A stretch of DNA of 34,262 nucleotides from a virus (Duplodnaviria > Heunggongvirae > Uroviricota > Caudoviricetes), in IMG/VR virus record IMGVR_UViG_3300014208_000025, positions 244,967 through 279,228 of that record. One strand, given 5' to 3'. A program made the translations under genes and the position numbers. Each line of letters opens with the position of its first letter. The stretch's first letter is position 1. Positions 9,649-29,796 of the stretch are shown piece after piece. The notes under the pieces are model-generated. The model saw only the letters and a program-made list of their open reading frames with translations. It did no database searches and was not told where the DNA came from.

Positions 9649-9984
9649 TTATTCGGCCATAAGCAACGTCGCCGTCTTATTCCGTTCATCCCGTTGCTGA
9701 GCCTCTTCCTCAAGGTCCGCCTCATACGATTTCTGCCAAGGCTCTTTCGCATTTTCAATCTCTTGATGAATAGATTCAAGGAACGTCATCCCGGCAGAAT
9801 GAATAATGCCACCAATATGGGATTCCACCACGCTCACTTCGGCTAGTCGTTCTGCAACCTTGGTAAACGGATTTGGTTTCGTGCCATTATGTAAGGCCCT
9901 ACGTTGTTGAACAAGGGTTGGATGCTTCACTTGGAAGTCGGTGCTGGTTTGGAGGTTTTGCATGTAGGTATCAAGGTTTGTCAT
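9649..9984 (-). CDS. hypothetical protein, leaderless
   Basis: TTGACA-N16-TAGATT-N6-ATG. Confidence 0.75.
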   Translation of the reverse strand: MTNLDTYMQNLQTSTDFQVKHPTLVQQRRALHNGTKPNPFTKVAERLAEVSVVESHIGGIIHSAGMTFLESIHQEIENAKEPWQKSYEADLEEEAQQRDERNKTATLLMAE

Positions 9985-10279
9985 GCAACGAATCTATCAC
10001 ATGTTAAGAAGTTGTCAAGTCCATATCCAAGAAATGATTGCCGTGGTCGGAGTAGGCTAGAATGTTACGTGGCCAAAGTGCTTTTTTTGAGTGCTATTCG
10101 TATGTGAATACGTTTTATATTTCAGAGAAAAAATTGACCGACGCAACAACGTGGACCAGCGAGGGGTGTCGCAGCCCCGCGTTTGCTGCGTTCAGAAGAC
10201 CACCCAGCACCCACGTACGGGGGGTAGCATTAGGTGTCGTTATGAACCCTATTAGGGATGCCGGTAGGGGAGGGTCAAC

Positions 10280-10507
10280 CTACAATTTAGGAACTTCGTA
10301 GATATAATTACGGTGAGATGTTTTAGTCCACCAGTATCCTTTTCGTGGATGTTTGATGAATGACAAAAACCGACCGGCTTCAACGCAGTCGTTTCCACAC
10401 CTTCCATCGTCTGAATCCAGTTTGGATGGAAATGAGTAGGTATGACCATTCCATTTTACGGTAACGATTTTGCATCCTTTTGAGTAAATTAGAGTAGCAT
10501 TTTTCAT
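10280..10507 (-). CDS. hypothetical protein
   Basis: 75-aa ORF. Confidence 0.65.
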   Translation of the reverse strand: MKNATLIYSKGCKIVTVKWNGHTYSFPSKLDSDDGRCGNDCVEAGRFLSFIKHPRKGYWWTKTSHRNYIYEVPKL

Positions 10508-10513
10508 ATTGTG

Positions 10514-10630
10514 TTATACCTTGACGAGTTTACGGAACGAAATACGGAATGCCCCTTTGAAGAAATACACTTTTCGATATGGAGCACCCTTCAATCGGTC
10601 CATGATTTGTTTATGCGTTGGTATTTTCAT
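10514..10630 (-). CDS. small basic protein (38 aa), leaderless
   Basis: TTGACA-N16-TAGGTT-N6-ATG. Confidence 0.55.
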   Translation of the reverse strand: MKIPTHKQIMDRLKGAPYRKVYFFKGAFRISFRKLVKV

Positions 10631-10710
10631 ATTGGAAACCTAACATACCTTTCGGTATTGTCAAATCCTATTAAGCGAATCTTTTGATACACTCAGGTTC
10701 GATTCCACGG

Positions 10711-10902
10711 TCAACGGTCGAGAGTGACGTGAGAACAATGTGACCAGCAGATTCTTCCGCTTTCAGTTTTGAAGGCGATTAGGCTTTTATCGAAGTTTTC
10801 ATCGTGAAGGGTGCCACGAGTTATCTTTCCTTCAAAGGAACGCTTGACCTTGGTGCCTTCGGGGTAGAAGTTGTTAGCCGTCGGAAGGAATATCGTTTTC
10901 AT
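10711..10902 (-). CDS. hypothetical protein, leaderless
   Basis: Promoter -10 box lies 6 nt before the ATG. Confidence 0.7.
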   Translation of the reverse strand: MKTIFLPTANNFYPEGTKVKRSFEGKITRGTLHDENFDKSLIAFKTESGRICWSHCSHVTLDR

Positions 10903-11048
10903 ACCGTCAACCTAACACACTAAAAATTTTTGTCAATTGAAATCGTCAAATAAAAATTGGAGGATCAATCATGGTTTCTAAGTGTGTGGCCACTATATTG
11001 TTACGACAAATCCACAAATCCAGGTTGACCCTCCACTGTAGTAGGGGG

Positions 11049-11231
11049 TTATGGTGGTAGGATGCCTTCGGCTTTGAGTGCTCGGTCAAGTTCCATAAGT
11101 AGTTCATCACCAAGAGTTGACGTGGCTGAGTAGGTTACTAAGGCGTTACGGAGAGCCAACAGTTTCCCTTTGGTGAATGTGGTATCGAGTCTGTATTGGT
11201 TTTCAGATCGTTTGTCTTTTGTGATTTTCAT
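11049..11231 (-). CDS. hypothetical protein, leaderless
   Basis: Promoter -10 box lies 6 nt before the ATG. Confidence 0.7.
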   Translation of the reverse strand: MKITKDKRSENQYRLDTTFTKGKLLALRNALVTYSATSTLGDELLMELDRALKAEGILPP

Positions 11232-11280
11232 ACTGACAACCTAACACACTAAAAATTTTTGTCAAATAAAAAAACAAATT

Positions 11281-11311
11281 TCCCCGTTACCCTCTGACAA
11301 GATAACGGGGA
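11281..11311 (-). terminator. intrinsic terminator
   Basis: TCCCCGTTA/TAACGGGGA stem followed by a T-run on the minus strand. Confidence 0.7.
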
Positions 11312-11332
11312 GTGTCAGACCGGAAATTGTTA

Positions 11333-11986
11333 TTACCGAGCCATGATAGGGTTTTGATCCATGACCAACACTGCGGCTGCCGCCGTTCCGACGTTGACCG
11401 TTGACGGATTGACTTCGAAACCGTAACCCTCGGGGGCGGTGAATTCGATTGTGTCACCGTTGACCTTGACACCACAGACATTACCCTCGTCCAAGGCAAA
11501 TTCACGGAATTTTCCGATTGACAACTGACGACGGAGTTTGTTTTTCTCGATTGTCAAGGGTGCAGATTTGACGGGTTTCTGCGGTTCTCCTTCAATGAGA
11601 ACGACTTTGGAATGAAGGAGGCCGAACAATTGAAGGGTATTGTCAACGGTGTTGAGGTTCAGACCGTTACCGATGGAAACGTATTGACCAACCTTGGTAT
11701 AATCCTCGTTCTGTTTTCCTTCCGCGTGGGCCGTGAGGGTTTTCTTGAGGGATTCCATGACTTCGACGGCGGCGGTGTAGGCAAGTGTCGTCTTGTTAAC
11801 CATTTCCGACATAAGGATTTCCAACTCCGTGACGGATTTTTCGACTGCGGTGTGGTAAGAAAAGCCGAGATTCACCGTGTAACGACCGAGTTCCTTGGTT
11901 TTCTTGGTGAAGTAAGTCAGAGAGGCGAACTGACATCCTTTTATTCCCTTGATGGATTCTGCGACTTGACCGATTTGAGTTTTCAT
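11333..11986 (-). CDS. hypothetical phage protein
   Basis: Long ORF; likely start MKTQIG after an A-rich leader. Confidence 0.8.
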   Translation of the reverse strand: MKTQIGQVAESIKGIKGCQFASLTYFTKKTKELGRYTVNLGFSYHTAVEKSVTELEILMSEMVNKTTLAYTAAVEVMESLKKTLTAHAEGKQNEDYTKVGQYVSIGNGLNLNTVDNTLQLFGLLHSKVVLIEGEPQKPVKSAPLTIEKNKLRRQLSIGKFREFALDEGNVCGVKVNGDTIEFTAPEGYGFEVNPSTVNVGTAAAAVLVMDQNPIMAR

Positions 11987-12109
11987 AACAGTTATTGATT
12001 TTACGTTCTGTTTATTGAGGTTGGAGTGATTTCCTTCCTTCAACATACACACAATAACACGGTTCTATAAAAAGTCAAATTATTTGTTTGGGTATTTGTC
12101 AAGTCAAGT

Positions 12110-12289
12110 TTACAAAAGCGGAAGGTTTCCTTCCTCAAGGTCGTCGGTCAACTCACGAAGGTCGTTCAGACTGCTACTACCTGAAACCATGAAAAGACGG
12201 TTGACGTGTTCCATTTCCGATTTCGTCATGGTTGGGTTGGCTTTCAGAATAGCGAGCACTTTTTTCATTAGTTTGAGATTTTTATTCAT
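12110..12289 (-). CDS. hypothetical protein (59 aa), leaderless
   Basis: TTGACA-N16-TAGGTT-N6-ATG; not in the ORF track. Confidence 0.65.
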   Translation of the reverse strand: MNKNLKLMKKVLAILKANPTMTKSEMEHVNRLFMVSGSSSLNDLRELTDDLEEGNLPLL

Positions 12290-12589
12290 ACCTACAACCT
12301 AACACACAATTAGAATGTGTCAAATGATTTGTTTGGGTATTTTCTGATGGTTGACGTGGAGGAAATAACTCAAATTAGGAGTTGACAATTCACTAAAAGC
12401 GGTTAAATTCATAGATCATTAACATGGATTCATTGGTCGGTCCGTCCTCAGAAATGGGGTTGTAGCCATAAAGGTAGGTCAAACCACGTTATATGAACGG
12501 GAAATCAATTCTGGAATTAGGGGTGGCGTAACTTCCTCTGACGGTTTATCGTCGTTTCTATGGACAACTTAACACAAAACTTGAGTGTG

Positions 12590-12772
12590 TCAAATTTTTT
12601 GTTTACTTAACCATTCTTTCATATCCACCATGAACTTTTCACGGTCTTGGTGATAGAGGTAATCTCCATAAAGTCGAGTGACTTGGTGGTATTTACCGTT
12701 ATGATGGTTTGTCGTATTGACGGAAAGGGAATTGAGATATGCTCTATATCGTTTAATATCACCACGTTTCAT
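12590..12772 (-). CDS. hypothetical protein, leaderless
   Basis: Own promoter; stop is the TGA of the next TTGACA. Confidence 0.7.
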   Translation of the reverse strand: MKRGDIKRYRAYLNSLSVNTTNHHNGKYHQVTRLYGDYLYHQDREKFMVDMKEWLSKQKI

Positions 12773-12819
12773 ACCAACACAATAACCCACTTGGCCCGAA
12801 AGTCAAGGGGATTGTTTGA

Positions 12820-13026
12820 TTATTTCACACGTCTGTAATCCGATGGAATGACGCTACCTTGGATGATGGGGTTATGTTTCCACGCGGAGGCCGGAGTTTT
12901 GTAACCGAGCCGAGTGTGGAGTCCGTGGGTTTGAGAGTAGGATTCAAATTCCTCAAAGGAAGTGTAATTCTTTCTAAGTTTGGATTGCCACCCTTCGATT
13001 CCCGATCTACATTTGATTCGTTTCAT
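12820..13026 (-). CDS. hypothetical protein, leaderless
   Basis: TTGACT-N16-TATCTT-N6-ATG. Confidence 0.7.
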   Translation of the reverse strand: MKRIKCRSGIEGWQSKLRKNYTSFEEFESYSQTHGLHTRLGYKTPASAWKHNPIIQGSVIPSDYRRVK

Positions 13027-13080
13027 ACGATGAAGATACCCCTTGACCGGTGAAAGTCAAGGGGTTTCTTTGAAAAATTG

Positions 13081-13551
13081 TTATGGTTCAAGTCGGATGT
13101 TGAAGGAACGACGGTAGTAGTTTACCGAATTGGTATGTTTTCCGAACCAGTATAGGTTTTCTTCGACGCTGCTCCAATTTCCATTGTCTTGAATACCGCC
13201 CAAGGCCCGAACCGCTTCGTAACAGCCAACTCCACAGTTCCGACGTTGCGGTTGGATGGATTCATCCAAGTTCGTCATCAATTTCAAGGTGCGGGCAATT
13301 GTCATTTTACTTACAACAATTCCGTGCCCCGCGAGGATTTCGACCATATCAGTTTGAGAGAAAGCCGAAGTTCTGTCACTTCCGTTCAAAATACAGGCTA
13401 CATAATACCACATGGGTTTTTCGTATTTGGCCCGTTGTGATTTACCGATGCCGTTATTGTCATCAAATTCGTTGATTTTGGTGACAACGTGGCGGCGATC
13501 AATAACACTTTTGATTTGGAGCCGTTTGACCGATGGATTTGGTTGTTTCAT
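13081..13551 (-). CDS. putative winged-HTH DNA-binding protein
   Basis: FSQTDMVEILAGHGIVVSKMTIARTLK resembles the ArgR-type N-terminal wHTH pattern. Confidence 0.55.
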   Translation of the reverse strand: MKQPNPSVKRLQIKSVIDRRHVVTKINEFDDNNGIGKSQRAKYEKPMWYYVACILNGSDRTSAFSQTDMVEILAGHGIVVSKMTIARTLKLMTNLDESIQPQRRNCGVGCYEAVRALGGIQDNGNWSSVEENLYWFGKHTNSVNYYRRSFNIRLEP

Positions 13552-13589
13552 TATATGGTAATGAGTTGAAGATTTTACGTGACCGTGGT

Positions 13590-13808
13590 TTAAGCTTTGG
13601 TGACGATTTGGTGAATGTTGGCCCGGGCGAGGTTATCCAAGGAATTCCCCGTCCGTTTCAATGCCCCACTGACGACATGTGAGACACGTTCAGCGGTTTC
13701 TCTACCGCCGGGAAGAGTTGTGCGATATTCAAACCCGAGAGCCTTGAATACCCATTTCTGCCCGACCGCACCGTAAGTTACTTGATTGTGTGTATAGACT
13801 TTTTTCAT
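13590..13808 (-). CDS. hypothetical protein
   Basis: 72 aa; promoter near 13884 with an A/C-rich (AAC)n leader. Confidence 0.7.
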   Translation of the reverse strand: MKKVYTHNQVTYGAVGQKWVFKALGFEYRTTLPGGRETAERVSHVVSGALKRTGNSLDNLARANIHQIVTKA

Positions 13809-13893
13809 GGTGTTGTTGTTGTTTTGTTGTTGACCGATGTTGTTCCTAACAGATACACCCTAACACAGATTGTTAAAATGTCAAGGGATTTGT

Positions 13894-14049
13894 TTAACTA
13901 TTTGGAAGAATCTTGACCCACACTTCAGCCCCGCGCCGATGGACGATTTTACCGTGAAGCGGAGCACCTTTATAGCCTCCGTTCTTAATGTATTCACGAA
14001 AACGGGGTTCTGACGTGAACCAATAGATGTTGCAACCAAGGTATTTCAT
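13894..14049 (-). CDS. small hypothetical protein (51 aa)
   Basis: Starts directly after the stop of 14051-14383. Confidence 0.55.
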   Translation of the reverse strand: MKYLGCNIYWFTSEPRFREYIKNGGYKGAPLHGKIVHRRGAEVWVKILPNS

Positions 14050-14050
14050 A

Positions 14051-14383
14051 TCAGTTCCAAGATGTGTTCTGACCTGGTTTGAGATAGGCGATTCCGTAGG
14101 GTGCGGTGCAGTCTAAGCCACCGTCGGAGTTGAAGATATTTCCGCGTGGGTGTTTGGCCGGAGTCTTGTAGGAAGCGGGCATCAGCACGTCTCCCGTCGT
14201 CTTATCAATGAAAGCGTAACACGAGTTGTCACGGAAGACACGGATGTAGCGTTTACCGTCTTTGATCGTGAACTTGGGTAGCGGAAGAATCGGGAAATGA
14301 GTCTTCATATACAAGTCAGACTTTACACGGACGCTGGCCAGCCACATTTTGAATTGAATGGTGTCTATGGTTACTTTATTCAT
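14051..14383 (-). CDS. conserved-looking phage early protein, leaderless
   Basis: GKRYIRV..YAFIDKTTGDVLMPASYKTPAKHPRGNI pattern; own promoter. Confidence 0.75.
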   Translation of the reverse strand: MNKVTIDTIQFKMWLASVRVKSDLYMKTHFPILPLPKFTIKDGKRYIRVFRDNSCYAFIDKTTGDVLMPASYKTPAKHPRGNIFNSDGGLDCTAPYGIAYLKPGQNTSWN

Positions 14384-14397
14384 ACCGCTACCCTAAC

Positions 14398-14475
14398 ATT
14401 GTTTTCAGAATTGTCAAATGAATTGTTTGGGTTATTATTGTTTTCAGAATTGTCAAATGAATTGTTTGGGTTATT
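14398..14475. repeat. 39-bp perfect tandem duplication of a promoter -35 region
   Basis: ATTGTTTTCAGAATTGTCAAATGAATTGTTTGGGTTATT x2. Confidence 0.95.
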
Positions 14476-14716
14476 TGTGGGTGGGTTTGGTATATGATTC
14501 GAGGGTATGAAGGGGGAACACGTCATTAAACAGTTGGCCCCAACTATCCCACGATTGACAGTGAGCCAATTTGTTAGTAGGGTCAATTTTGAAAACGGAA
14601 TAAATTCGTTTGACTTTTGGTTTGTTTTTGCCCATGTCACCCCGTTCAAACCCCGTGGCATCGGCCGCGTTGTAAATTCGGGAATCTTGAGAAACTACTT
14701 TGATTTCGGTATTCAT
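14471..14716 (-). CDS. hypothetical protein, leaderless
   Basis: TTGACA-N16-TAGGGT-N6-ATG. Confidence 0.7.
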   Translation of the reverse strand: MNTEIKVVSQDSRIYNAADATGFERGDMGKNKPKVKRIYSVFKIDPTNKLAHCQSWDSWGQLFNDVFPLHTLESYTKPTHK

Positions 14717-14746
14717 ACCGATACCCTACACTTGTTTTAAGTATTG

Positions 14747-14996
14747 TCAAGCAGTAAATGTGACCCAAAAGAAACTATCTCGTGCCGAACTGGATTGGGC
14801 ACCACCGACAAATGAGTGACAATGATCGCCAGAGTCAGTGATGACCGCCATAGGAATTTTCTCCTTGACTCGATTCACAAGTTTATCCGGACCGTTACCG
14901 TGCCGATAGAAATAACTGACCCAATATTTGAATTGCCCCCTTTGACTTTCTAACGTGTTGGGAGCCTAACAGTTCAATGACTTGTTTCGTTGTCAT
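14747..14996 (-). pseudogene. leaderless gene with a one-base frameshift in a G5 run
   Basis: MTTKQVIELLGSQHVRKSK joins GQFKYWVSYFYRHG...SFFWVTFTA* if 14936-14940 is G4; span is 3n+1. Confidence 0.65.
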
Positions 14997-15026
14997 ACCA
15001 TCATCCTACCATTGTTTTAAGTATTG

Positions 15027-15221
15027 TCAAGTGGTTTGTGGAAACTCTTTGACCCGCGTGACGGCGGTTGAACCGACTTTGAATCTGACTTTACGAGTGC
15101 CTCCGTTTTCATACAAACGAAGTGACCCATCCAGCCCAAAATCCACCATCAAATCGTTCTTGACATCCGTTTTGTTTGGAATGTCCACCGCAAATTTAAC
15201 GTGAACGTGTATCGTTTTCAT
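15027..15221 (-). CDS. hypothetical protein, leaderless
   Basis: Own promoter; stop within the next TTGACA. Confidence 0.7.
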   Translation of the reverse strand: MKTIHVHVKFAVDIPNKTDVKNDLMVDFGLDGSLRLYENGGTRKVRFKVGSTAVTRVKEFPQTT

Positions 15222-15265
15222 ATCCACACCCTAACACGAGTTGCGAGTTTGTCAACCGAAAATTT

Positions 15266-15460
15266 TCACTTTTTAGGGGCACATCCCGGCATGTAATCGT
15301 AACCGTCAAACCAGCCATTGCCCTTGGTGTTGGGATTGGAACAGTGACTTTGGGCTTCTGTCAGAGTGACGTTGGAGCGGAGTGTCCGGCTACCGGCCGA
15401 ATAACGGTAACGACGGATGCGGTAAATACGAGGTTCAGGTTGATAAGTTTCAGAGTTCAT
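15266..15460 (-). CDS. hypothetical phage protein
   Basis: 64 aa; LTEAQSHCSNP..WFDGY. Confidence 0.7.
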   Translation of the reverse strand: MNSETYQPEPRIYRIRRYRYSAGSRTLRSNVTLTEAQSHCSNPNTKGNGWFDGYDYMPGCAPKK

Positions 15461-15466
15461 GGTGTT

Positions 15467-15589
15467 TTATTGGTTGGTGAGAGCCCGCCAGATTCCCTTC
15501 AAGTGAAAAGTGATTCGGCCCCAACGACCGAGTTGACACTGTTTACAAATACAGAGCGAGTGACACTTGATTTGAATCATCTTTGACAT
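15467..15589 (-). CDS. small Cys-containing protein (40 aa)
   Basis: ATG 5 nt after a TATGAT -10 box. Confidence 0.5.
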   Translation of the reverse strand: MSKMIQIKCHSLCICKQCQLGRWGRITFHLKGIWRALTNQ

Positions 15590-15643
15590 ACCACATCATA
15601 CACTTGTTTTAACTATTGTCAAATAAATACTGAAAGAAAATGC

Positions 15644-15670
15644 GGGGCCGGTGAAACAGTCACCGGCCCC
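15644..15670 (-). terminator. intrinsic terminator
   Basis: GGGGCCGGTGA/TCACCGGCCCC stem followed by GCATTTTCTTT. Confidence 0.75.
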
Positions 15671-15688
15671 TATGAACAACGAACCAAC

Positions 15689-16060
15689 TTACACCGAAAT
15701 TCCAGACTTGAATTGGGCCTTGATCGTGGGACTGGCCCACTTGGTAGGAACCCGAACGCAATCCATTCGACTGACGGGCGTGGGCACCATTTCCGTTTTC
15801 GTCACTAAACGTTTGACGAAACGGAACTTGGGTTTCTCCGTGATATACACCGTGAAGTGTGTCGCGTATTTCAACGGTAGGTCTTGCCGGAGATTCCGAC
15901 GACGATTTTCTTCGATGTTTTTATACGGTTTCCGTGGGCCCCGACCCCTCACACTGACACCGTTTGGGGTGTTTTTCAAAAGTTTACGGAGGGTGCGGAT
16001 AAATTGTTTACCCTCCACGTTATTAGGAACGTGTTTGAATTGATTGATTGAATCGTTCAT
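15689..16060 (-). CDS. basic hypothetical protein
   Basis: 123 aa; promoter near 16132 with an A/C-rich leader. Confidence 0.7.
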   Translation of the reverse strand: MNDSINQFKHVPNNVEGKQFIRTLRKLLKNTPNGVSVRGRGPRKPYKNIEENRRRNLRQDLPLKYATHFTVYITEKPKFRFVKRLVTKTEMVPTPVSRMDCVRVPTKWASPTIKAQFKSGISV

Positions 16061-16135
16061 GGTGTTTTCGTTGTTGTCGTTGTTTTACCGTTTCACTACA
16101 CAACACCCTATCATTGTTTTCGGTATTGTCAAATT

Positions 16136-16351
16136 TTATTCTTCGGATTCCTCGGGAGATTCCACGTTGTCCATGATGGTAGCAAGTAAATGGTCATAGT
16201 CACCACTCATACATTCATCCATGACAGACTTGATTTCCTCGGGAGTCCAACCTTGACGCCGGGCGGCCCGTTGAAAGGCACCCATCACTGTGAAGGCGTT
16301 ACCGTCCAAACCAACTAATTCGAGTTTAACTTTTTTGGTTATTGTTATCAT
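16136..16351 (-). CDS. conserved-looking phage protein, leaderless
   Basis: LVGLDGNAF..A..QGW..EI...MSGDYDHLL pattern; own promoter. Confidence 0.75.
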   Translation of the reverse strand: MITITKKVKLELVGLDGNAFTVMGAFQRAARRQGWTPEEIKSVMDECMSGDYDHLLATIMDNVESPEESEE

Positions 16352-16390
16352 GTTGTTATCCTACCATTGTTTTCGGTATTGTCAAATTGT

Positions 16391-16765
16391 TTAGTGAAGA
16401 AAAGAACGACCGTCAACCAACCGACGAAACTCAACTTCAAAATGGTCTGACCCCATATTGAGGGGAACAAAGTTGTTGGGGCCGCCGGTGTAATCACGAT
16501 TCGACTGTGCCGTTCTGACCAACATGGTTTCTTTTGACCAACGGATATCACTGATGGAGAAATACCACATTTGACCGTTTCCCCAAGTGAAGAATCCGTT
16601 TATGTCGAAGTGATTCGGTTTCCCTATCTGAACCAACGTCGCACCGTGTTCCGTCAAGAACTTGGTGAACTCACGTTTGAACAGACGGTGCCACGAGAGA
16701 TATTCGGGCGTCCGTGACGATGAACTTTCAAAGTTGGTTTGAGTTAAGTCGAGTGCTCGTTTCAT
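16391..16765 (-). CDS. hypothetical phage protein, leaderless
   Basis: 124 aa; own promoter. Confidence 0.75.
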   Translation of the reverse strand: MKRALDLTQTNFESSSSRTPEYLSWHRLFKREFTKFLTEHGATLVQIGKPNHFDINGFFTWGNGQMWYFSISDIRWSKETMLVRTAQSNRDYTGGPNNFVPLNMGSDHFEVEFRRLVDGRSFLH

Positions 16766-16801
16766 ATTGACATCCTAACATTGTTTTGAGTATTGTCAAG
16801 T

Positions 16802-16996
16802 TCAATCTGCGAGATTATCGAGAATCCACTTGTCAACGTCGTGCAACGTCTTTTCAGTCTGAACGTGGTAACATTGACATTCATCGCAGAAATAAATCAG
16901 TTGTGGTTGGGCGTCAACGAGGGCACGGATTTGTTCCGTTGACAAGTCAAGCAAACTTAGTTCCTCGCCATTTTCGGTAATTTTGATATCTTTCAC
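16802..16996 (-). CDS. hypothetical protein, leaderless with GTG start
   Basis: TTGACA-N16-TAAGTT-N6-GTG. Confidence 0.6.
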   Translation of the reverse strand: MKDIKITENGEELSLLDLSTEQIRALVDAQPQLIYFCDECQCYHVQTEKTLHDVDKWILDNLAD

Positions 16997-22643: not shown

Positions 22644-22680
22644 CACTTGACAAATTAAAAACTTCTGTTAAGTTGACCCC

Positions 22681-22881
22681 ATGATTACATTAGCATTCAT
22701 TCCGTTTTTGTGCCCTTGGGATGACATTTTTGTTTGGATTCCTTTGCTTACCATCATTGGAGTTTTCGTAAAAAAGAAATTTAAATGGTGCCGCAAGTCG
22801 TGTGGTTGTCATTGTCACAACAAGAAACAAATCACAACTTCTATAAAGGATGGACATTCCTATAATCAGACTGAGAAATGA
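22681..22881 (+). CDS. small membrane protein, leaderless
   Basis: Hydrophobic segment followed by a Cys/His cluster. Confidence 0.6.
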   Translation: MITLAFIPFLCPWDDIFVWIPLLTIIGVFVKKKFKWCRKSCGCHCHNKKQITTSIKDGHSYNQTEK

Positions 22882-23099
22882 AAACTCACAAAGAAATCCG
22901 TCGTAACATAAAAGAATGTTTTCATTTGTTTGCTCGTAATGGAGTATGGGGAACGTGCGTTGATTGTCCAACCAATGGCGACGGTCAAATTCAACCTGAA
23001 CTATGTGAAAATTTTGATAGATACGATCATAGATTAACTTTGACATCGTTAGTGGAACAATATAACTTTGCCCTTAATGAAACTCATAATCCTCAGTGA
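22878..23099 (+). CDS. hypothetical protein
   Basis: 73 aa; ATGA overlap. Confidence 0.55.
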   Translation: MKTHKEIRRNIKECFHLFARNGVWGTCVDCPTNGDGQIQPELCENFDRYDHRLTLTSLVEQYNFALNETHNPQ

Positions 23100-23697
23100 C
23101 GTTCATGGAAACATTTTGCGGTGTCAAGATGTTGCTTTGAGGAATCCCAGCACTCCAATCGTTCAACTGGGTGACTTGGGCGTGGGTTTCGTTCCTCGGG
23201 AAGTCATCGAAAATTTGCCTAAAAACTTCTTTTTCTTTCCCGGCAATCATGACAACCGAAAGATTGCAATGACGTTTGACAGGTGTTTGGGTCACTTTGG
23301 CCCATACTTCTGGGATACAATTTTCATTGTATCAGGAGCCGACTCCAAAGATAAGGCGGTTCGAACTGAGGGAGTCAACTGGTGGCCGGATGAAGAATTG
23401 ACTTATGAACAAGGGCAAGACTGTATTGACAAATGGGCCAAAAGTAAAGCCGAAGTCATCATTTCTCATGATTGTCCACAACGGATCGCTGAGGCATTCT
23501 TTTTGATTTACGATAAATCACGGACGCGGCAGATTCTTGATGCCATGATTGACGCCAGACGGCCAAGAGTTGTGCTATTCGGCCATCACCACCGACCATT
23601 CTCCAAACACCATGAAGGCGTGGAATATTGTTGTTTGAAAATAGATGAAACAATTTCCCTTGACATTTCGGAAAACAAGATTACTTTGACACCATGA
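23077..23697 (+). CDS. calcineurin-like metallophosphoesterase
   Basis: All five motifs present: SDVHG, LGDLG, PGNHD, ISHD, FGHHH. Confidence 0.9.
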   Translation: MKLIILSDVHGNILRCQDVALRNPSTPIVQLGDLGVGFVPREVIENLPKNFFFFPGNHDNRKIAMTFDRCLGHFGPYFWDTIFIVSGADSKDKAVRTEGVNWWPDEELTYEQGQDCIDKWAKSKAEVIISHDCPQRIAEAFFLIYDKSRTRQILDAMIDARRPRVVLFGHHHRPFSKHHEGVEYCCLKIDETISLDISENKITLTP

Positions 23698-23903
23698 AAC
23701 GAAGTTGGTTACTAAAATTAACACCGAAACAATTTGCGAAACTGTATAAAGGTTTGCATTTCCGGTTTCGATTCTATTTGAATCTGGCGTTTGAAACTGT
23801 CACCTATGAGGGCGTCACTCTCACCATTCACGTTCCCAACGACAACATTTCCAATGAAATTTCTGACTACATCAACGGTTTCGCTTGTGCGATTTATCCC
23901 TGA
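23694..23903 (+). CDS. hypothetical protein, leaderless
   Basis: TTGACA-N16-TACTTT-N6-ATG. Confidence 0.65.
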   Translation: MKRSWLLKLTPKQFAKLYKGLHFRFRFYLNLAFETVTYEGVTLTIHVPNDNISNEISDYINGFACAIYP

Positions 23904-23906
23904 CGT

Positions 23907-24101
23907 ATGACCAAATGGAATAAAGATCAATATCTTAGCCACGTTGGCCAAGAACCGGTTTTGGATGACCTTGACCGTTGTAATTGTCCGGAAGCTGACC
24001 AGCCGGGACATCACATGTGCGGCATTTGTGAACATCATTTGCCGGTATTTAGATGTCAAGTTTGTATCGCCAAACCATTTGGAACCGTAAAAAGAATTTG
24101 A
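23907..24101 (+). CDS. Cys/His-rich phage protein
   Basis: DDLDRCNC..GH..CG.C..H..P.F.C pattern. Confidence 0.7.
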   Translation: MTKWNKDQYLSHVGQEPVLDDLDRCNCPEADQPGHHMCGICEHHLPVFRCQVCIAKPFGTVKRI

Positions 24102-24133
24102 CAGACAGAAAATTTTCAGTAAGGTATCACTAT

Positions 24134-24499
24134 ATGACTTACAAAAATTGGTGTCTTCATTCAACTGTTATTCTTGCCGAGGCCGATGTTCACAACAAAT
24201 GGGCAGCTGAAGCCAAAAGAAATTTGTTAACCAATATTGGTCCGAGAATAGCCAAACTCAATGAAACAGGATACATAGGGTGTGGATATCATTACAGTCT
24301 TGAACAAGACTTTGGCAAGTTGTTTGGGTTGTTGGCAATCCGTTGGCAACCGTGTGCCAATTGGTGTAAACACGTAGAACGTGACAGAGACAAGGCAATG
24401 CTTGCCGAAGTCATTTATAGTTCTCTCATTGAACAGTTGACGGAAGCTGAAGAATCAGTTCCCAAATTCAAGAAAATTTATCCTCGCAAAAAGTTATGA
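24134..24499 (+). CDS. hypothetical protein
   Basis: Start MTYKNW after the promoter at 24098. Confidence 0.7.
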   Translation: MTYKNWCLHSTVILAEADVHNKWAAEAKRNLLTNIGPRIAKLNETGYIGCGYHYSLEQDFGKLFGLLAIRWQPCANWCKHVERDRDKAMLAEVIYSSLIEQLTEAEESVPKFKKIYPRKKL

Positions 24500-24870
24500 A
24501 ACCAAACTATCTAAATGAAATGGCGGATGTTTACACTCGCATGGCCATCGGCGAACACGTTCACACTCCATTCAACATGATTTTTCAAGGTGTTGACGCG
24601 ACCCATGCCGCCGGCGTATTTCAGTTTCAAGGCGAACCCGAACTTATCAAACGGTTAACGGGCGGAGCCAACTTGAACAGCAATCACGTTCTGTGGATTG
24701 GTGACGCATTCTTTCGCCCGAAAATCATTACTCAGTCACGCCATTTAATGGGTAACGGAATCTCTGGAATTTTCACCACTGGATTCTGCCATGTTGACGA
24801 GTGGGTGAAAAACGGAAAAGTTTTGAAAGGTGAATTACCACCTGAAACGAAAGCAACACAATACGCATGA
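24496..24870 (+). CDS. hypothetical protein
   Basis: 124 aa; ATGA overlap. Confidence 0.75.
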   Translation: MKPNYLNEMADVYTRMAIGEHVHTPFNMIFQGVDATHAAGVFQFQGEPELIKRLTGGANLNSNHVLWIGDAFFRPKIITQSRHLMGNGISGIFTTGFCHVDEWVKNGKVLKGELPPETKATQYA

Positions 24871-25010
24871 AAACCCCAAAAAACAGACAAGACGAAGAAG
24901 ACGAATTGCCGGTTGACACCTTGGCTCAAGAAGTGGCCGAGTCACTTCCCGGCTATCAAGAATATCAGAAAGAAGCCCGTGGCGACTCTTTGAATTTCGG
25001 TGATTACTAA
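24867..25010 (+). CDS. small acidic protein (47 aa)
   Basis: ATGA overlap with the upstream gene. Confidence 0.55.
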   Translation: MKTPKNRQDEEDELPVDTLAQEVAESLPGYQEYQKEARGDSLNFGDY

Positions 25011-25053
25011 GAGAAATTACTTGACAATTATTTCGTTCGTGTTATGGTTGTAA

Positions 25054-25186
25054 TGGTAAAACATGGACAGCATGAACGTCCTGCTAACTCCGGAGTATGA
25101 AAGGTGGACATGCGTTCGATTGATTGAGGGTTGCTCCTCATGTGTTGAAAGATGATGGTTCGACTCCACTCCATGTTTTATCACCA
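25054..25186 (+). ncRNA. candidate tRNA-like or Y-RNA-like ncRNA (133 nt)
   Basis: Own promoter at 25021; 14-bp terminal stem TGGTAAAACATGGA/TCCATGTTTTATCA then CCA; T-arm TGG-TTCGACT-CCA. Confidence 0.65.
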
Positions 25187-25317
25187 ATTTCTTAAACAAA
25201 TCACTTGACTTAGCGGAAACTTATGTTAAGGTAACTCCATGATAAAGATTGGAACACAATTTCGGAACTATATCGAATACAACGCTCGTTGGGCGACTAT
25301 TAACATCCAATTTTGAT

Positions 25318-25512
25318 ATGGCACACTCACGCATTATCGTTAAGGTCAAGGATTGTATCGCCTACATTGAGGGATGTGGTTGGAAGTTCATCGGGCGCCA
25401 ATACGGTTCTTATTGGTTCAAGGGCAACAACGGCAAAACCAACATGGCCGGAAGTAACACCATTCCATTCACCTTGACCGAACTCCGCCACGCCTACAAT
25501 AACGGATGGTAA
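25318..25512 (+). CDS. hypothetical protein
   Basis: Likely start MAHSRI. Confidence 0.65.
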   Translation: MAHSRIIVKVKDCIAYIEGCGWKFIGRQYGSYWFKGNNGKTNMAGSNTIPFTLTELRHAYNNGW

Positions 25513-25513
25513 T

Positions 25514-25714
25514 ATGCCAACACGAATCGTCACACGAGATATCCGAACCGTCAACGGCATCACTGTTGAAGTTCAAGGCATTAAACGGCTGGAATATACC
25601 GGAGAATGGGCACCGGCTGGCTTCTATGTCATGTTGAACGACAAACGGATTGGCAACTTTTGGGGTTGGCCAACCGATGATGATATAGCAAAAGTTTTGG
25701 CGAAATCCGCTTGA
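25514..25714 (+). CDS. hypothetical protein
   Basis: 66 aa; stop within the next TTGACA. Confidence 0.7.
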   Translation: MPTRIVTRDIRTVNGITVEVQGIKRLEYTGEWAPAGFYVMLNDKRIGNFWGWPTDDDIAKVLAKSA

Positions 25715-25744
25715 CATTTGTGAAAACAATGTTAGATTCTTCAC

Positions 25745-25861
25745 ATGATTGAAATAGTATTTGGCATTCTTTTACTCGGAATTCTGGTCGCAGGGTTTAT
25801 GGCTGCTCCGCCGTTGTGGCCCACGGATGCAGAAATCAACAAGGAAACCCACCATGATTGA
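25745..25861 (+). CDS. small membrane peptide (38 aa), leaderless
   Basis: MIEIVFGILLLGILVAGFMAA; own promoter. Confidence 0.55.
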   Translation: MIEIVFGILLLGILVAGFMAAPPLWPTDAEINKETHHD

Positions 25862-25902
25862 CACGTTAAGAATCTTGGTCAGTTGGCAATGGTGGTATTA
25901 TC

Positions 25903-26091
25903 ATGAAAACTTTCAAAGAAGCCAAGAAAGAAGCTGACCGTGTTGGAGGAGTGGTAACGTGGTGGGTTTCCTACTCCGTTCACAAAGCGAAGGATTACAG
26001 TTGGGCTACCTGTGGTTATCCTAAATACGTTTCCAAGAAAGCGGTCAAGTTCTTTCAAGACCGCTGGGCAAAAAAGAAAATGAAGAAATAA
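25903..26091 (+). CDS. basic hypothetical protein
   Basis: 62-aa ORF. Confidence 0.65.
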   Translation: MKTFKEAKKEADRVGGVVTWWVSYSVHKAKDYSWATCGYPKYVSKKAVKFFQDRWAKKKMKK

Positions 26092-26124
26092 TTTGACAAT
26101 ACTGAAAACAATGTTATGGTGTAT

Positions 26125-26190
26125 ATGTAACAGGGTATGAAAGCCCGAGGATAGGGGACCGGAGAGTGCGTTGATATCTTTAACGTTATC
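26125..26190 (+). ncRNA. candidate small RNA with AUAGGGGA loop, copy 2
   Basis: Promoter at 26093; leaderless ATG is followed directly by TAA; shares TGAAAG..CCG..ATAGGGGACCGGAG..TGCG with 17099-17163. Confidence 0.5.
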
Positions 26191-26245
26191 TGAAATAGTT
26201 GAAAGAATTATTTGACAATAGTGAAATCAATGTTATAGTGTCAAC

Positions 26246-26416
26246 ATGATAACAGAACATAACATTGTGACCGATAAAGGAAACACTATTCAGGTCTTCT
26301 ATAACAGCGACAACAATCTTCTTGTAGTTGATCTTATAGCCAAGAACGAGTCGGGCGGCAACGAAATACTTCGCCAGACGTTGGATGAATCCAAATTACT
26401 CAAACATACAACCTAG
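26246..26416 (+). CDS. small hypothetical protein (56 aa), leaderless
   Basis: TTGACA-N16-TATAGT-N6-ATG. Confidence 0.65.
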   Translation: MITEHNIVTDKGNTIQVFYNSDNNLLVVDLIAKNESGGNEILRQTLDESKLLKHTT

Positions 26417-26470
26417 TAATAATTTCACAAAACAATTTGACAATTCTAAAAACAAGATTAGGGTATAGAC

Positions 26471-26737
26471 ATGAGTAAACACATAATTTGGGCAGAAATG
26501 GCCCGTAGAAAAGTCCAGTTTCATCCAAACGAATCTTGGGAAACCATTACTCTTTGGGGGTTGTTTGAATGGGGGTCCGTCAGTAAATTGATTAACACCG
26601 GTGAACTCCTAACCAATTACAGAAAAGAGAATCGGACGGTATGGGTCAGACCATCTAAAGAATCGTGGGAAACCAAAATCAAACCGTTGATTGACGGTTA
26701 TTCTCTTTCCGAATTGACTACAATGGCAGGTTGGTAA
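26471..26737 (+). CDS. hypothetical protein, leaderless
   Basis: TTGACA-N16-TAGGGT-N6-ATG. Confidence 0.75.
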   Translation: MSKHIIWAEMARRKVQFHPNESWETITLWGLFEWGSVSKLINTGELLTNYRKENRTVWVRPSKESWETKIKPLIDGYSLSELTTMAGW

Positions 26738-26788
26738 ATAATCAAACAAAACATTTGACTTTCACAAAACTTCGATTAACTTAACCCA

Positions 26789-27613
26789 ATGAAATTATTA
26801 AAGTTTAGTGACGGAAACAGCAAACTACCAAAGGGTATAACAACTTTTTCGTTGCCGGCATCCTACTCATGTCCGGGAGCAAACGAGTGTCGTTCTCAAG
26901 CAGTTAAGACAAGTGAAGGATTCAGAATTAAAGATGGTCCTAACTGTCAATTCCGTTGTTTCGCCGCCATTGACGAAGTTCTTAAACCGAACGTCAGAGA
27001 ACAACGATGGCACAATTTCAACCTTTTGAAAACGTGTAAATCCACAGTTGAAATGGTGGAATTGATCGTTAAATCGTTACCGGCATCGGCGTTCAATTTA
27101 CCCGTGAGATTACATGTCAGTGGAGATTTTTTCTCGCAAATGTATTTTGATGCGTGGTTGGAAGTTGCTCGAAAGTTTCCCCAACGTATCTTTTACGGTT
27201 ACAGTAAATCGTTATTGGTATGGGTGGCTCGTAAAGACAACATGCCTCCGAATTTCAAATTGGTGGCTAGTCGAGGCGGAAAATGGGATAACCTAATTGA
27301 GACTCATAAACTCAGATCGGCCAAGGTGGTTTACAGTGAAGCCGAAGCAATCTCTCTTGGTCTGTCAATAGACCATGACGATTCATATTGTTACAAGGGT
27401 ACTGACGATTTTGCCCTACTCCTTCACGGCACGCAACCAGCCGGCAGTGCATCGGCCAAAGCGTGGCAGGAGTTGAAGAAAATTGGCAAGGGCGGCTACC
27501 ACAATCAGAAACGGGGCCGGGGTTGGGGCGGCAAGGATTACGAGGGTCAACCCCTCAAAAAAAACTATGGTAGGGGTACCCCCTCCCCCAAGGGTATGAA
27601 AGTTCTCGCTTGA
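26789..27613 (+). CDS. GP88-family phage protein
   Basis: GNSKL..FSLPA..SCPGA..C..CFA and VRLHVSGDFFS..Y..W..FYGYSKS pattern. Confidence 0.75.
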   Translation: MKLLKFSDGNSKLPKGITTFSLPASYSCPGANECRSQAVKTSEGFRIKDGPNCQFRCFAAIDEVLKPNVREQRWHNFNLLKTCKSTVEMVELIVKSLPASAFNLPVRLHVSGDFFSQMYFDAWLEVARKFPQRIFYGYSKSLLVWVARKDNMPPNFKLVASRGGKWDNLIETHKLRSAKVVYSEAEAISLGLSIDHDDSYCYKGTDDFALLLHGTQPAGSASAKAWQELKKIGKGGYHNQKRGRGWGGKDYEGQPLKKNYGRGTPSPKGMKVLA

Positions 27614-27643
27614 CATTTCACAAAACAATGTTACCTTGACGTT

Positions 27644-27817
27644 ATGAATAATACAATCAAACTGCCCAACGGTCACAAATGGGAAGAAGTTACTGCTGCA
27701 ACCGCATCTGAAACTTGGTTTCAATGTAATCGTTGTGGAGCGACTTTCATCCATGACATGATTGACGACTCCATTGAACAGGAAGCAGGCGATGAAAGTT
27801 GTGACGCTCAAGATTGA
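27644..27817 (+). CDS. small Zn-ribbon-like protein (57 aa), leaderless
   Basis: GHKW..CNRCG; own promoter. Confidence 0.6.
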   Translation: MNNTIKLPNGHKWEEVTAATASETWFQCNRCGATFIHDMIDDSIEQEAGDESCDAQD

Positions 27818-27853
27818 ACTTGACAAACCGAAAATTTCATTTAAGGTAAATCA

Positions 27854-28456
27854 ATGAGAACACTTGAAACGGTAAAGATTTGGTCGGGGGATGGCTTGGG
27901 TCAAGCCTCAGCCGTCACATTGACACAACTCAAACGTACGTCGGATGTGGCTTTATATCAACGTACTCAGAAAAGCGGTGCTTCGCAGGGGTATGAAGTC
28001 TTCATGGTCAAAGTCGTCGAGGCTGGTGCTCCCCTCCCTGGTGGGGGCGTGGTGGAGGAAAGTTACGAGCAATATCCAACGGCCAATCGTTTCGGAAGAA
28101 CGGCTTGGGCACCTGCGTCACTCGATCACGCAGAAAGAATTTACGAGAATCTGGTCAGAGGATTGAAACCTTGTGATGTGAGCGAGGCTGACGATGAAGA
28201 GGGCAACGAGACGCCCGAAATTCCTACGGTGCCAAGGGTGTCGGGTCAGCGTGGTCGCATCAAGAAAGAACTTCCTGTGTTGACTCTACCTGACAAGGAA
28301 TTCACCGTAGGTGAATTGGCCGAGGCAAACAAGGTGGAATATCCGATTGCCTATCAGTTCATCAAGGCGGCTCTTGAAATCAAAACGATCAAGTTTGTTC
28401 GGACCGAACGTCGCAATGCCAAGGGCAAGGAAAGTTCCATTTACTCAAAAATTTAA
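27854..28456 (+). CDS. two-domain protein with a C-terminal winged-HTH-like region
   Basis: FTVGELAEANKVEYPIAYQFIK...GKESSIYS; acidic linker. Confidence 0.65.
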   Translation: MRTLETVKIWSGDGLGQASAVTLTQLKRTSDVALYQRTQKSGASQGYEVFMVKVVEAGAPLPGGGVVEESYEQYPTANRFGRTAWAPASLDHAERIYENLVRGLKPCDVSEADDEEGNETPEIPTVPRVSGQRGRIKKELPVLTLPDKEFTVGELAEANKVEYPIAYQFIKAALEIKTIKFVRTERRNAKGKESSIYSKI

Positions 28457-28491
28457 TTTGACAATCGCAAACAATAGTGTAAGGTATCTCT

Positions 28492-28893
28492 ATGAATAAA
28501 AAAGTTCTCGCAGCAACCAGACGGGCCTACGGTGATTCACAACAGTTCCCCGATACCATCGAAGGCAACCTCAAACAAAACAAAGCCTTCGCGGCACGTA
28601 ATCTCAACTTCCGGGCTCCGGCACCTGTGTCGGTAACGGATGCGGTGGAAATCATGCGAGTGGCCCTTTGTGTTCCCTCAACGGAAATGGAAGCCTATAA
28701 CAATTTCAAACCGGCTCACTTGGGCATGTTGCCTGAATGCTCCAAGGTCATTCTCGCCCGTGAAGGGTCGGTTTGTGTTTACGTTAAATTGCCCAAGGAT
28801 TTCAAAACGGTTGACGCCCGAACATTGCGATACATGATGGTTGATGAATGTCATCCACAGAAAGATGGAACTGTACGGTTATGGTGGGATTAG
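28492..28893 (+). CDS. hypothetical phage protein, leaderless
   Basis: 133 aa ending VRLWWD; own promoter. Confidence 0.75.
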   Translation: MNKKVLAATRRAYGDSQQFPDTIEGNLKQNKAFAARNLNFRAPAPVSVTDAVEIMRVALCVPSTEMEAYNNFKPAHLGMLPECSKVILAREGSVCVYVKLPKDFKTVDARTLRYMMVDECHPQKDGTVRLWWD

Positions 28894-28971
28894 ATTTAAG
28901 ATTTTTCTCACCTTTGTTCTGCCCAAACTAAATTAAGGGGTGGTACTCCCTCCCCATAGGGTCTAAACATT

Positions 28972-29199
28972 ATGAGCATGACCAAACAAGAAGCCAAAGA
29001 CAAGTTGAGACAGGCACAAGAATTGATTTTCGAAGTGGAGAAACAATTCATCGAAAGCGAATTTCCACGACTTCATGGCTACCGTGCTCGCATTGCGTTG
29101 GCCACCTTTCAAGACATCATCGGTTATAGTTTCTGGAACAAGGATGAACCTTTAATCGAAACAAAAGATTTGACAAATCAAAAACCTGTGGCATCTTAA
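28972..29199 (+). CDS. hypothetical protein
   Basis: 75-aa ORF. Confidence 0.6.
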   Translation: MSMTKQEAKDKLRQAQELIFEVEKQFIESEFPRLHGYRARIALATFQDIIGYSFWNKDEPLIETKDLTNQKPVAS

Positions 29200-29202
29200 T
29201 TT

Positions 29203-29358
29203 ATGAATCCCTACGGAGAATGTTGTATCTGTCATCAAGCCTTCAAAAAGTGGGATCGGAAACATCGTATTCAAATCATCAAATGTGGCGTCAGGTCAGA
29301 GGAAGAATACGATTACTGTTCGCAATGTTACTCCATTCACATTGAGAAAAACGATTGA
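29203..29358 (+). CDS. small Zn-finger protein (51 aa)
   Basis: CCIC..YCSQC; stop within the next TTGACA. Confidence 0.55.
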   Translation: MNPYGECCICHQAFKKWDRKHRIQIIKCGVRSEEEYDYCSQCYSIHIEKND

Positions 29359-29393
29359 CACTCCTTGGATGTTCTAATATACTTCCATACCCT

Positions 29394-29636
29394 ATGAAGA
29401 AAAATCTAACTCTCTTAATTGTGGCATTCACTTTGATTGCCGGAACTACCATTCGGGTTGACGCCAAACAGACTCCACGAGAACAACATCACGAACAACA
29501 TGACGACCGAGAGGATCAAGATGATCGTGACGGTAACTGTCATAGTATTCCTGACTCTGGGAGTACTCTCCCCCTACTGGGAGCGGGCTTCATTGGTTTA
29601 TTCTTCGTTCGTCGCAAGTTTCAAGTTGTCGGTTGA
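29394..29636 (+). CDS. minimal VPDSG-CTERM (PEP-CTERM-like exosortase substrate) protein
   Basis: Signal peptide MKKNLTLLIVAFTLIAG..VDA; charged linker; C-terminal IPDSGST, transmembrane helix and RRK. Confidence 0.8.
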   Translation: MKKNLTLLIVAFTLIAGTTIRVDAKQTPREQHHEQHDDREDQDDRDGNCHSIPDSGSTLPLLGAGFIGLFFVRRKFQVVG

Positions 29637-29667
29637 GGGATTCATTCTCCCTCCTTTCTGTTGGGTC

Positions 29668-29697
29668 AACGAGCATCCCGTTATTGGGGTGCTCGTT
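29668..29697 (+). terminator. intrinsic terminator closing the rightward array
   Basis: AACGAGCATCCC/GGGGTGCTCGTT stem followed by CCTTT. Confidence 0.65.
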
Positions 29698-29796
29698 CCT
29701 TTGCGTCTGGTGGGGGTGGTACTCCCTATGGAGGGGAGATGGTCATAATTATTTAGAGCGTTTTCAAATTATCAGATATATTTATAGTTCGCTCCT

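Follow-up and report, generated by a model that had tools for sequence, protein, structure and literature searches.

A promoter-dense array of predicted leaderless gene cassettes in an uncultured T4-like jumbo phage

Promoter-early stem-loop (PeSL) cassettes shuffle genes in T4-type phages (Arbiol et al. 2010, PMC2839356; Comeau et al. 2014, PMC4122927), and PeSL mini-circles have been documented in RB49 and phi1 (PMC2839356). The early 'über' promoters of T4 form a four-element class, with UP, -35, TGn, and -10 elements (Hinton 2010, PMC2988021). In the Thermus phage phiYS40, middle and late transcripts are leaderless, and the balance of host IF2 and IF3 is shifted in their favor (PMC3594737); phiKZ has been reported to be without leaderless transcripts. 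Here we describe an array of promoter-gene cassettes in a 34,262-bp stretch of DNA (the window), which is the final part (positions 244,967 to 279,228) of a 279,228-bp IMG/VR record of an uncultured phage (G+C 40%). We consider this array probably to be an early host-takeover region, with promoters read by the host and leaderless, monocistronic messenger RNAs (mRNAs).

Like PeSL cassettes, the units of the array place a strong sigma70-like, presumably early promoter directly before a small ORFan in a hyperplastic T4-like region, and as in PeSL phages, relatives differ by insertion, deletion, or replacement of cassettes that appear to be bounded by promoter elements. PeSLs have a stem-loop or terminator (often GGGG...CCCC) in or beside the promoter, whereas the array is without one; the 68 nucleotides (nt) upstream of 53 promoters fold at -11.96 kcal/mol, compared with -11.99 kcal/mol in controls, and dyads occur in a few spacers and are lacking in most. 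A PeSL element also ends in a Shine-Dalgarno sequence and a start codon, whereas here there is a start codon only, 6 nt after the -10 box, with no room for a leader. The viral contigs L135, L177, and L136, promoter-dense arrays of the classical kind that served as controls, show a similar density of TTGACA-N17-TAnnnT promoters (13 to 26 per 9 to 12 kb, each before a small gene), but differ in having 25- to 30-nt leaders with AAGGAG or GAGAGG, and the L136 spacer contains a dyad, as in PeSLs.

As with T4 early promoters, four elements are conserved in dozens of copies, which would be expected to out-compete host promoters. Unlike them, the promoters here have a spacer of mostly 16 bp, a -10 box that is often G-rich (TAGGGT, TAAGGT), and no predicted transcribed leader. 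The phage resembles phiYS40 in being large and virulent, with many genes on (here predicted) leaderless mRNAs. However, phiYS40 is not T4-like and its leaderless classes are middle and late, whereas here an early class with full -35/-10 promoters is concerned, besides which a late-type motif, TATTTATA, also lies 3 to 5 nt from ATGs. Tandem single-gene units, unrelated cargo, and a content that varies between relatives recall integron arrays. Integrons need an integrase and attC sites, and integron cassettes have no promoters. In contrast, every cassette here comes with a promoter, and neither an integrase nor an attC-like element was seen. A literature search turned up no report of T4-like phages with leaderless early arrays, and the papers that mention both do so incidentally. 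Overall, we conclude that the array is a predicted leaderless, stem-loop-free variant of the T4-type early-promoter cassette regions.

Promoters and start codons of the array

The pattern TTGACW-N16-TANNNT has 53 matches in the window, compared with 0.80 ± 0.90 in shuffled sequences (largest count, 4). A position weight matrix (PWM) scan of the 279-kb genome returned 70 sites of at least 14 bits, compared with 2 in shuffled sequence, and 58 of the 70 fall in the final 35 kb of the genome. These counts confirm the promoter-dense array of TTGAC(A/T)-N16-TAnnnT described in the initial annotation, which had been made by inspection of the window. That annotation had placed the array at 9649 to 29700. 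About 51 promoters do lie there, 46 with a 16-bp spacer and 5 or 6 with a 17-bp spacer, but the array is larger; it starts near 7.6 kb, continues up to the end of the window (34.0 kb), and includes a third, leftward block at 30.7 to 34.0 kb; in addition, about 12 promoters precede RNAs or leadered genes rather than leaderless open reading frames (ORFs). The change from leftward to rightward cassettes falls where it had been noted, near 20.6 to 20.7 kb (Table 1).

Spacer lengths across the genome are 16 bp at 75 sites, 17 bp at 38 sites, and 8 to 19 sites at each other length. The 16-bp spacer, which had been called constant, is found at about 85% of sites in this phage, but both 16 and 17 bp occur in relatives. 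In a sequence logo of 61 sites, all four RNA polymerase elements (UP-like, -35, TGn, and -10) are conserved: an A/T-rich, UP-like tract directly upstream of the -35 box (often ..CCAAACAAWTC), TTGACA, a run of A within the spacer, TG at -15/-14, and TAnnnT. The TG is usual, as previously noted (T in 40 and G in 43 of the 61 sites). Downstream of the -10 box, five bases vary in the logo; a pyrimidine follows at 51 of 61 sites, and next comes the ATG, which most commonly reads ATGAAA.

Of the 70 PWM sites of the whole genome, 35 have an ATG that opens an ORF exactly 6 nt downstream of the -10 box. Among the roughly 51 promoters at 9649 to 29700, 30 have ATG or GTG at exactly this distance and 8 more have one at 4 to 8 nt, where about 0.9 would be expected by chance at one fixed offset; the earlier claim that most cassettes carry their ATG at 6 nt is thereby upheld. 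The ORFs that open at these ATGs have 25 to 364 codons. The Pfam match of the GP88-family protein starts at residue 7 (profile position 4), and the PHROG match of the RNA ligase spans residues 24 to 357 of 364. Because these profiles match from near residue 1 and the offset is kept in relatives, we take the ATGs at the 6-nt offset to be real translation starts.

Bacterial RNA polymerase prefers to start 7 to 8 nt past the -10 box, at a purine following a pyrimidine. Since the A of the ATG is the seventh nucleotide after the -10 box and has a pyrimidine before it, transcription most likely starts (+1) on that A, judging from the geometry. The proposal that promoter and translation start share one module has strong support in the geometry, the relatives, and the profile matches, with the transcription start as its predicted part.

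In the model that we favor, the housekeeping sigma70-type RNA polymerase of the host would read about 60 very strong four-element promoters right after infection. At about two-thirds of them, where the ATG begins 7 nt past the last T of the -10 box and follows a pyrimidine, the product would be a monocistronic leaderless mRNA, whose translation would need no Shine-Dalgarno site. The second codons of these genes are rich in A, and ATGAAA is the most frequent start. The exceptions would use unstructured CA-rich leaders or ATGA stop-start overlaps, and the same promoters would drive transfer-messenger RNA (tmRNA), transfer RNAs (tRNAs), and small RNAs. Finally, the repeated promoter modules of 45 to 55 nt would probably act as homology patches for phage recombination, such that cassettes are gained, lost, and moved as units.

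Relatives and cassette turnover

The design was found in several other phage genomes. L020 and L021, metagenome fragments whose proteins are 68 to 76% identical to those of the window, keep the 16-bp spacer and the 6-nt offset. The 214.7-kb viral contig G007 (proteins 34 to 57% identical) has 53 exact promoter-N6-ATG matches, compared with 0 in a reversed control, and its own leftward/rightward promoter switch at 182138/182192. A freshwater clade (L011 to L072) has dense arrays, a T4-type portal, and about 37% identity on the 200-aa protein of the right arm. Its start has the form TAnnnT-ATTTCCACG-ATG, with the ATG 9 nt after the -10 box in 176 of 385 unique promoters; at this offset, a leader would have at most 2 to 3 nt. 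A separate T4-like lineage, G002 (55% G+C, portal 54% identical to that of Methylophilales phage Melnitz), carries 29 promoters within 14.8 kb, all with a spacer of 17 bp, and the ATG lies at 6 nt in 17 of the 29. Microcystis phage Mel-JY01 has no such array, with six chance-level promoter matches in 190 kb. Together, these data demonstrate that the promoter-cassette design, predicted by its geometry to be leaderless or nearly so, recurs in several uncultured T4-like lineages with fixed offsets of 6 or 9 nt.

The content of the array changes between relatives. Between L021 and the window, DNA homology continues through promoters and stops at the final base of the -10 box (L021 1134, window 26,240; L021 2177, window 27,637); between these stops the L021 cargo differs, and homology returns 18 nt upstream of the next -35 box, in a comparison with fragments (L020 and L021) that are too diverged to show the crossover itself. 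L020 has the variable 133-aa cassette (Table 1), but L021 lacks it and has the two genes on either side coupled by ATGA. The G007 homolog of this cassette lies in the other arm and the other orientation, beside the homolog of 18,313-18,627, and carries a different promoter. The window has just 8 genes in common with a 55-kb stretch of G007, and these are scrambled with respect to both order and orientation. The cargos are not paralogous to one another, so the array has not grown by gene duplication, an origin that was considered and excluded on this ground.

In the 9-nt-offset relatives, 18% of the ends of homology blocks have a promoter nearby (-20 to +45 nt), compared with 7% of random positions (2.6-fold). 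Adjacent same-strand promoters are 41.9% identical, compared with 36.9 ± 1.3% when permuted (P = 0.0004; positions not fixed by the search pattern), and identity falls off with distance. Near-identical 37-mers recur at no fewer than four cassettes in G007. The identical 28-mers reported at two neighboring cassettes were recovered at 10909-10936 and 11238-11265; they lie within longer promoter-to-ATGAAAA modules (10896-10942 and 11225-11271), and the cargos of 63 aa and 60 aa are unrelated. CCCAAACAA was found upstream of promoters at the four sites reported, two of which are one tandem duplication, and at one unrelated site. The ends of the tandemly duplicated partial promoter (Table 1) lie in an AAACAAT microhomology that occurs in both the UP tract and the spacer. 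Another tandem duplication without mismatches (37 nt x 2, 17918-17991) overlaps the 3' end of a 109-aa gene at 17948-18277.

Several observations weaken the case for a role of the promoters in recombination. Most promoter pairs are 60 to 80% identical over about 45 nt, and breakpoints at gene boundaries are expected under every model. BLAST blocks reach into promoters because promoters resemble one another, which weakens the evidence from block ends, and clustered promoter subclasses would mimic the higher identity of neighboring promoters. Gain and loss of cassettes between related genomes is seen as cargo swaps, scrambled order, and one whole-cassette indel, but across 10 kb no indels were found between G007 and the near-identical contig G008.

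Such observations would be accommodated if promoter likeness reflected convergent selection for maximal strength, with turnover by illegitimate recombination or horizontal transfer at gene boundaries and no recombinational role for the promoters. Every conserved position is a known RNA polymerase contact (UP, -35, TGn, -10; PMC2988021), promoter pairs share only the moderate identity given above, separate lineages arrived at the design with spacers and offsets that differ, and BLAST blocks would end near promoters in any case, promoters being at gene boundaries. However, neighbors are more alike at positions without known constraint, adjacent cassettes share an identical 28-mer inside their 47-nt, 91%-identical modules, and the 39-nt duplication shows that promoter sequences do misalign. 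We regard convergence as a tenable, though not the probable, account.

At the other extreme, the promoter repeats could be a selected, dedicated system, the array existing to generate diversity in the manner of an integrase-free integron. Cargo swapped between conserved promoters in L021, one cassette in different places and orientations among relatives, promoter similarity that decays with distance, the tandem duplication of a partial promoter, the recurrent 37-mers of G007, and the mini-circles of RB49 and phi1 (PMC2839356) would all be in line with such a system. Nothing, however, separates it from a by-product that would arise wherever a T4-like phage proficient in recombination has many promoters that are strong and alike. 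There is no sign of a recombinase, nor a stem-loop or a fixed core for crossover, the homology is short and imperfect, and the moved 133-aa cargo has another promoter in G007; we therefore consider a dedicated system unlikely. Of the earlier proposal of an integrase-free, cassette-shuffling array, modular exchange has partial support, and the concept is already published as PeSL-mediated shuffling (PMC2839356, PMC4122927). Promoters as crossover sites would fit the L021 homology stops, the moved cassette, the similarity of neighbors, and the duplication, all of which also fit ordinary indels plus promoter selection. Recombination at the promoters is plausible from these sequence comparisons, as a by-product rather than a dedicated system.

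Translation without Shine-Dalgarno sites, and the RNA genes

Outside the array, a Shine-Dalgarno match, even by loose criteria, precedes no more than 25% of genes, with no clear positional peak. Within the array, promoterless genes have long CA-rich leaders (…AACAACAACAACACC-ATG at 13,590 and 15,689) or an ATGA overlap with the upstream stop. The A/C-rich leaders without a Shine-Dalgarno sequence that had been described were found again at the leadered genes 13590, 15266, 15689, and 18666, and a 44-nt leader comparable to that of the leadered cassette in Table 1 lies downstream of the promoter at 16132. Few intrinsic terminators separate the cassettes, with just a handful convincing in 20 kb. 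Since a 5'-terminal AUG is usable only at the 5' end of an RNA, and the phage is without Shine-Dalgarno sites, almost every gene would need its own promoter. A gene placed internally on a read-through RNA, such as the scarcity of terminators would allow, would go untranslated for want of a ribosome-binding site unless coupled or CA-leadered.

Outside the array, 13 genes have an exact copy of TATTTATA 3 to 5 nt ahead of their ATG, the count used here because a shuffled-motif control was contaminated by shifted versions of the motif, and about 26 have a copy with one mismatch. Many of these are larger genes (for example, genome positions 33961, 34660, 39912, 113051, and 175459, and window 3857-3864 before the gene at 3870-5081). 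The motif resembles the T4 late promoter TATAAATA, and its distance from the ATG would leave no leader or a very short one; late genes are thus probably leaderless or nearly so.

It might be objected that the mRNAs are not leaderless, that transcription starts elsewhere, and that on read-through RNAs the G-rich '-10' boxes (TAGGGT, TAAGGT, TAGGAT) are weak Shine-Dalgarno sites 7 to 8 nt before the ATG; in a milder version, the box would have both roles, as -10 element and as ribosome site. The -10 hexamer contains AGG, GGA, or GAG at 20 of 47 leaderless-type promoters, compared with 4 of 28 RNA or leadered promoters (genome-wide; Fisher P = 0.012, post hoc), and the scarcity of terminators points the same way. 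Yet the -35 box, 16-bp spacer, TGn, -10 box, and UP-like tract exceed what a ribosome site needs, an identical promoter type precedes tmRNA, a tRNA, and small RNAs, and promoterless genes use CA-rich leaders instead. Moreover, the -10 boxes of the 9-nt-offset relatives and of G002 are without AGG, and there is no genome-wide Shine-Dalgarno signal. We find this reading highly unlikely. The excess of AGG, GGA, or GAG may reflect a dual role of the G-rich boxes on read-through RNA, which we regard as doubtful, or a preference of the host sigma factor.

Jumbo phages often encode their own RNA polymerases. That a phage-encoded or phage-modified polymerase or sigma factor, rather than the unmodified host holoenzyme, reads the array is, judging from promoter sequence and phage affiliation, highly unlikely, since the slightly atypical 16-bp spacer and G-rich -10 box stand against a canonical group-1 sigma70 consensus (TTGACA, TGn, TAnnnT), a T4-like phage from a group that relies on host polymerase (PMC2988021), and a separate late-type motif (TATTTATA) at other genes.

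Some points count against the reading of the array as an early, host-read region of leaderless mRNAs. The placement of +1 on the A of the ATG comes from geometry, early timing of the promoters is suggested by likeness to T4, and efficient leaderless translation by the host is an assumption. The scarcity of terminators also implies that abundant read-through RNA must exist.

The promoters that no ATG follows precede tmRNA, a non-coding stretch ending in tRNA-Met, presumed small RNAs (promoters at 17,065, 17,175, 21,281, 25,021, and 26,093), or leadered genes. The mature 5' end of the tmRNA lies 15 nt past the -10 box; its predicted tag is unusually long, ending in ..EFAMA. The tRNA(CAT) at the end of the non-coding stretch lies behind about 370 nt of ORF-free sequence that follows a consensus promoter. 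Its A11:U24 pair, U1xU72 mismatch, and two of three anticodon-stem G-C pairs are what we take to be features of an initiator, by visual comparison with that of Escherichia coli. A TATAGT -10 box ends 11 nt before the 5' end of the second tRNA-like gene.

Two non-coding promoter cassettes (17124-17156 and 26143-26175) have a common ..TAGGGGACCGGAG.. core, and the 9-nt-offset clade (L012, L014, and L017; for example, L017 10636-10680) has a conserved GATCGGCTGAACAAGCTAGGGTAGGGGACC RNA-like cassette; these cassettes may represent a conserved family of phage small RNAs. Within the left arm lie three promoters of rightward orientation (Table 1), the last of which is followed by an ATG 4 nt past its -10 box. 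Elsewhere in the record, five consensus promoters lie at positions 227710-240724 (minus strand); their -10 region reads GATATAGT, and TATTG.. rather than an ATG comes next. As a TATTG-type pattern also precedes the tmRNA and a tRNA, this region is probably an RNA gene cluster.

Table 1. Features of the promoter array and its surroundings (positions in the window)
Feature	Position	Strand	Remarks
Phage one-piece tmRNA	1424-1838	-	Rfam 122.9 bits; promoter 1853-1880
T4 RnlA-like RNA ligase, first left-arm cassette	6465-7559	-	PHROG match; predicted leaderless
Left arm, ~29 leftward promoter cassettes	7566..20484	-	Mostly ORFans of 33-237 aa
Two adjacent cassettes with near-identical promoter modules	10896..11271	-	47 nt, 91% identity
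Leadered cassette, promoter and 48-nt CA-rich leader (..AACAACAAAACAACAACAACACC-ATG), no Shine-Dalgarno	13809..13884	-	
Partial promoter (UP-like tract, -35, spacer) in two perfect tandem copies of 39 nt	14398..14475	-	
Three rightward promoters inside left arm	17065..17296	+	First two without ORF (presumed small RNAs)
Divergence gap, last leftward (20484, -) to first rightward (20731, +) promoter	20485..20730	.	
Right arm, ~20 rightward promoter cassettes	20731..29383	+	
Metallophosphoesterase gene, right arm	23077-23697	+	
GP88-family protein gene, right arm	26789-27613	+	Pfam match
Conserved 200-aa gene, right arm	27854-28456	+	
Variable cassette: promoter, 133-aa ORF, hairpin	28458..28970	+	
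Third block, 5 consensus promoters	30665..34002	-	One precedes long non-coding stretch running into tRNA-Met
Third-block ORFs, three, predicted leaderless	32035-32217, 32583-32951, 33675-33968	-	
Initiator-like tRNA(CAT) (tRNA-Met)	31204-31277	-	Promoter 31665-31692 (-)
Second tRNA-like gene, CAT anticodon loop, oversized D-arm	32282-32365	-	Rfam 59.5 bits; not called by ARAGORN

The phage, its host, and what the array implies

The record is classed as linear with a completeness of about 79%, so the array may extend past the contig end. A protein identical to the 200-aa product of the right arm is also encoded on a 351,839-bp contig, from which the true genome is probably about 350 kb in size. 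Among the large ORFs in the rest of the record are those for a T4-type portal with an intein, a tail sheath, a family-B DNA polymerase (PolB), a ribonucleotide reductase, and an NAD-dependent ligase. The closest cultured relative is Mel-JY01, at about 40% amino acid identity. From the portal, sheath, and PolB and from the relationship to Mel-JY01, we classify the phage as a distant T4-like jumbo myophage. No relative at the DNA level was found in the phage collection searched, and an alignment-based search of viral contigs returned no further relatives. A cyanophage origin was considered and set aside: psbA and nblA were not found, and the promoter matches in Mel-JY01 are at chance level.

The sole lead to the host, which we take to be poor in Shine-Dalgarno sites, is a sequence match that points to Verrucomicrobiota. 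An 80-aa secreted VPDSG-CTERM mini-protein of the right arm (29394-29636, plus strand) has a signal peptide, an acidic/His-rich stretch, and an exosortase signal that scores 31.3 bits, compared with an NCBIfam cut-off of 22, and the top genomic match of its tail is a metagenome-assembled genome (MAG) of Luteolibacter (Verrucomicrobiota). Some Verrucomicrobia are listed as Shine-Dalgarno-poor (PMC10783764). The 265 kb of the Luteolibacter MAG show no Shine-Dalgarno peak and only a weak TANNNT peak at -12, in a genome whose start calls are unreliable. No phage-encoded gene for S21, IF3, or IF1 was found in the record; Mel-JY01 is annotated with a ribosomal protein S21 gene (PP395634.1, 22183-22410; L216), which the present record is without.

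A phage-supplied initiator tRNA would suit a leaderless program. An all-leaderless design might go further and amount to a translational takeover, in which messages with a 5'-terminal AUG, the phage's own initiator-like tRNA and tmRNA, made from the same type of promoter, and an early product that disables leadered (30S- or IF3-dependent) initiation would act together; ribosomes could then translate phage mRNAs only. We offer this extension as a doubtful one.

The array would represent a compact viral early program, in which promoter and translation start are fused in a module of about 45 nt that is present in about 60 copies without ribosome-binding sites. Its recurrence points to hosts, or to states of the infected cell, in which leaderless initiation is efficient enough for most phage genes. 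The design also provides a sequence signature by which such phages may be detected and their gene starts corrected, and it widens the PeSL concept, that of mobile cassettes with promoters at their borders, to include elements without a stem-loop and a Shine-Dalgarno sequence.

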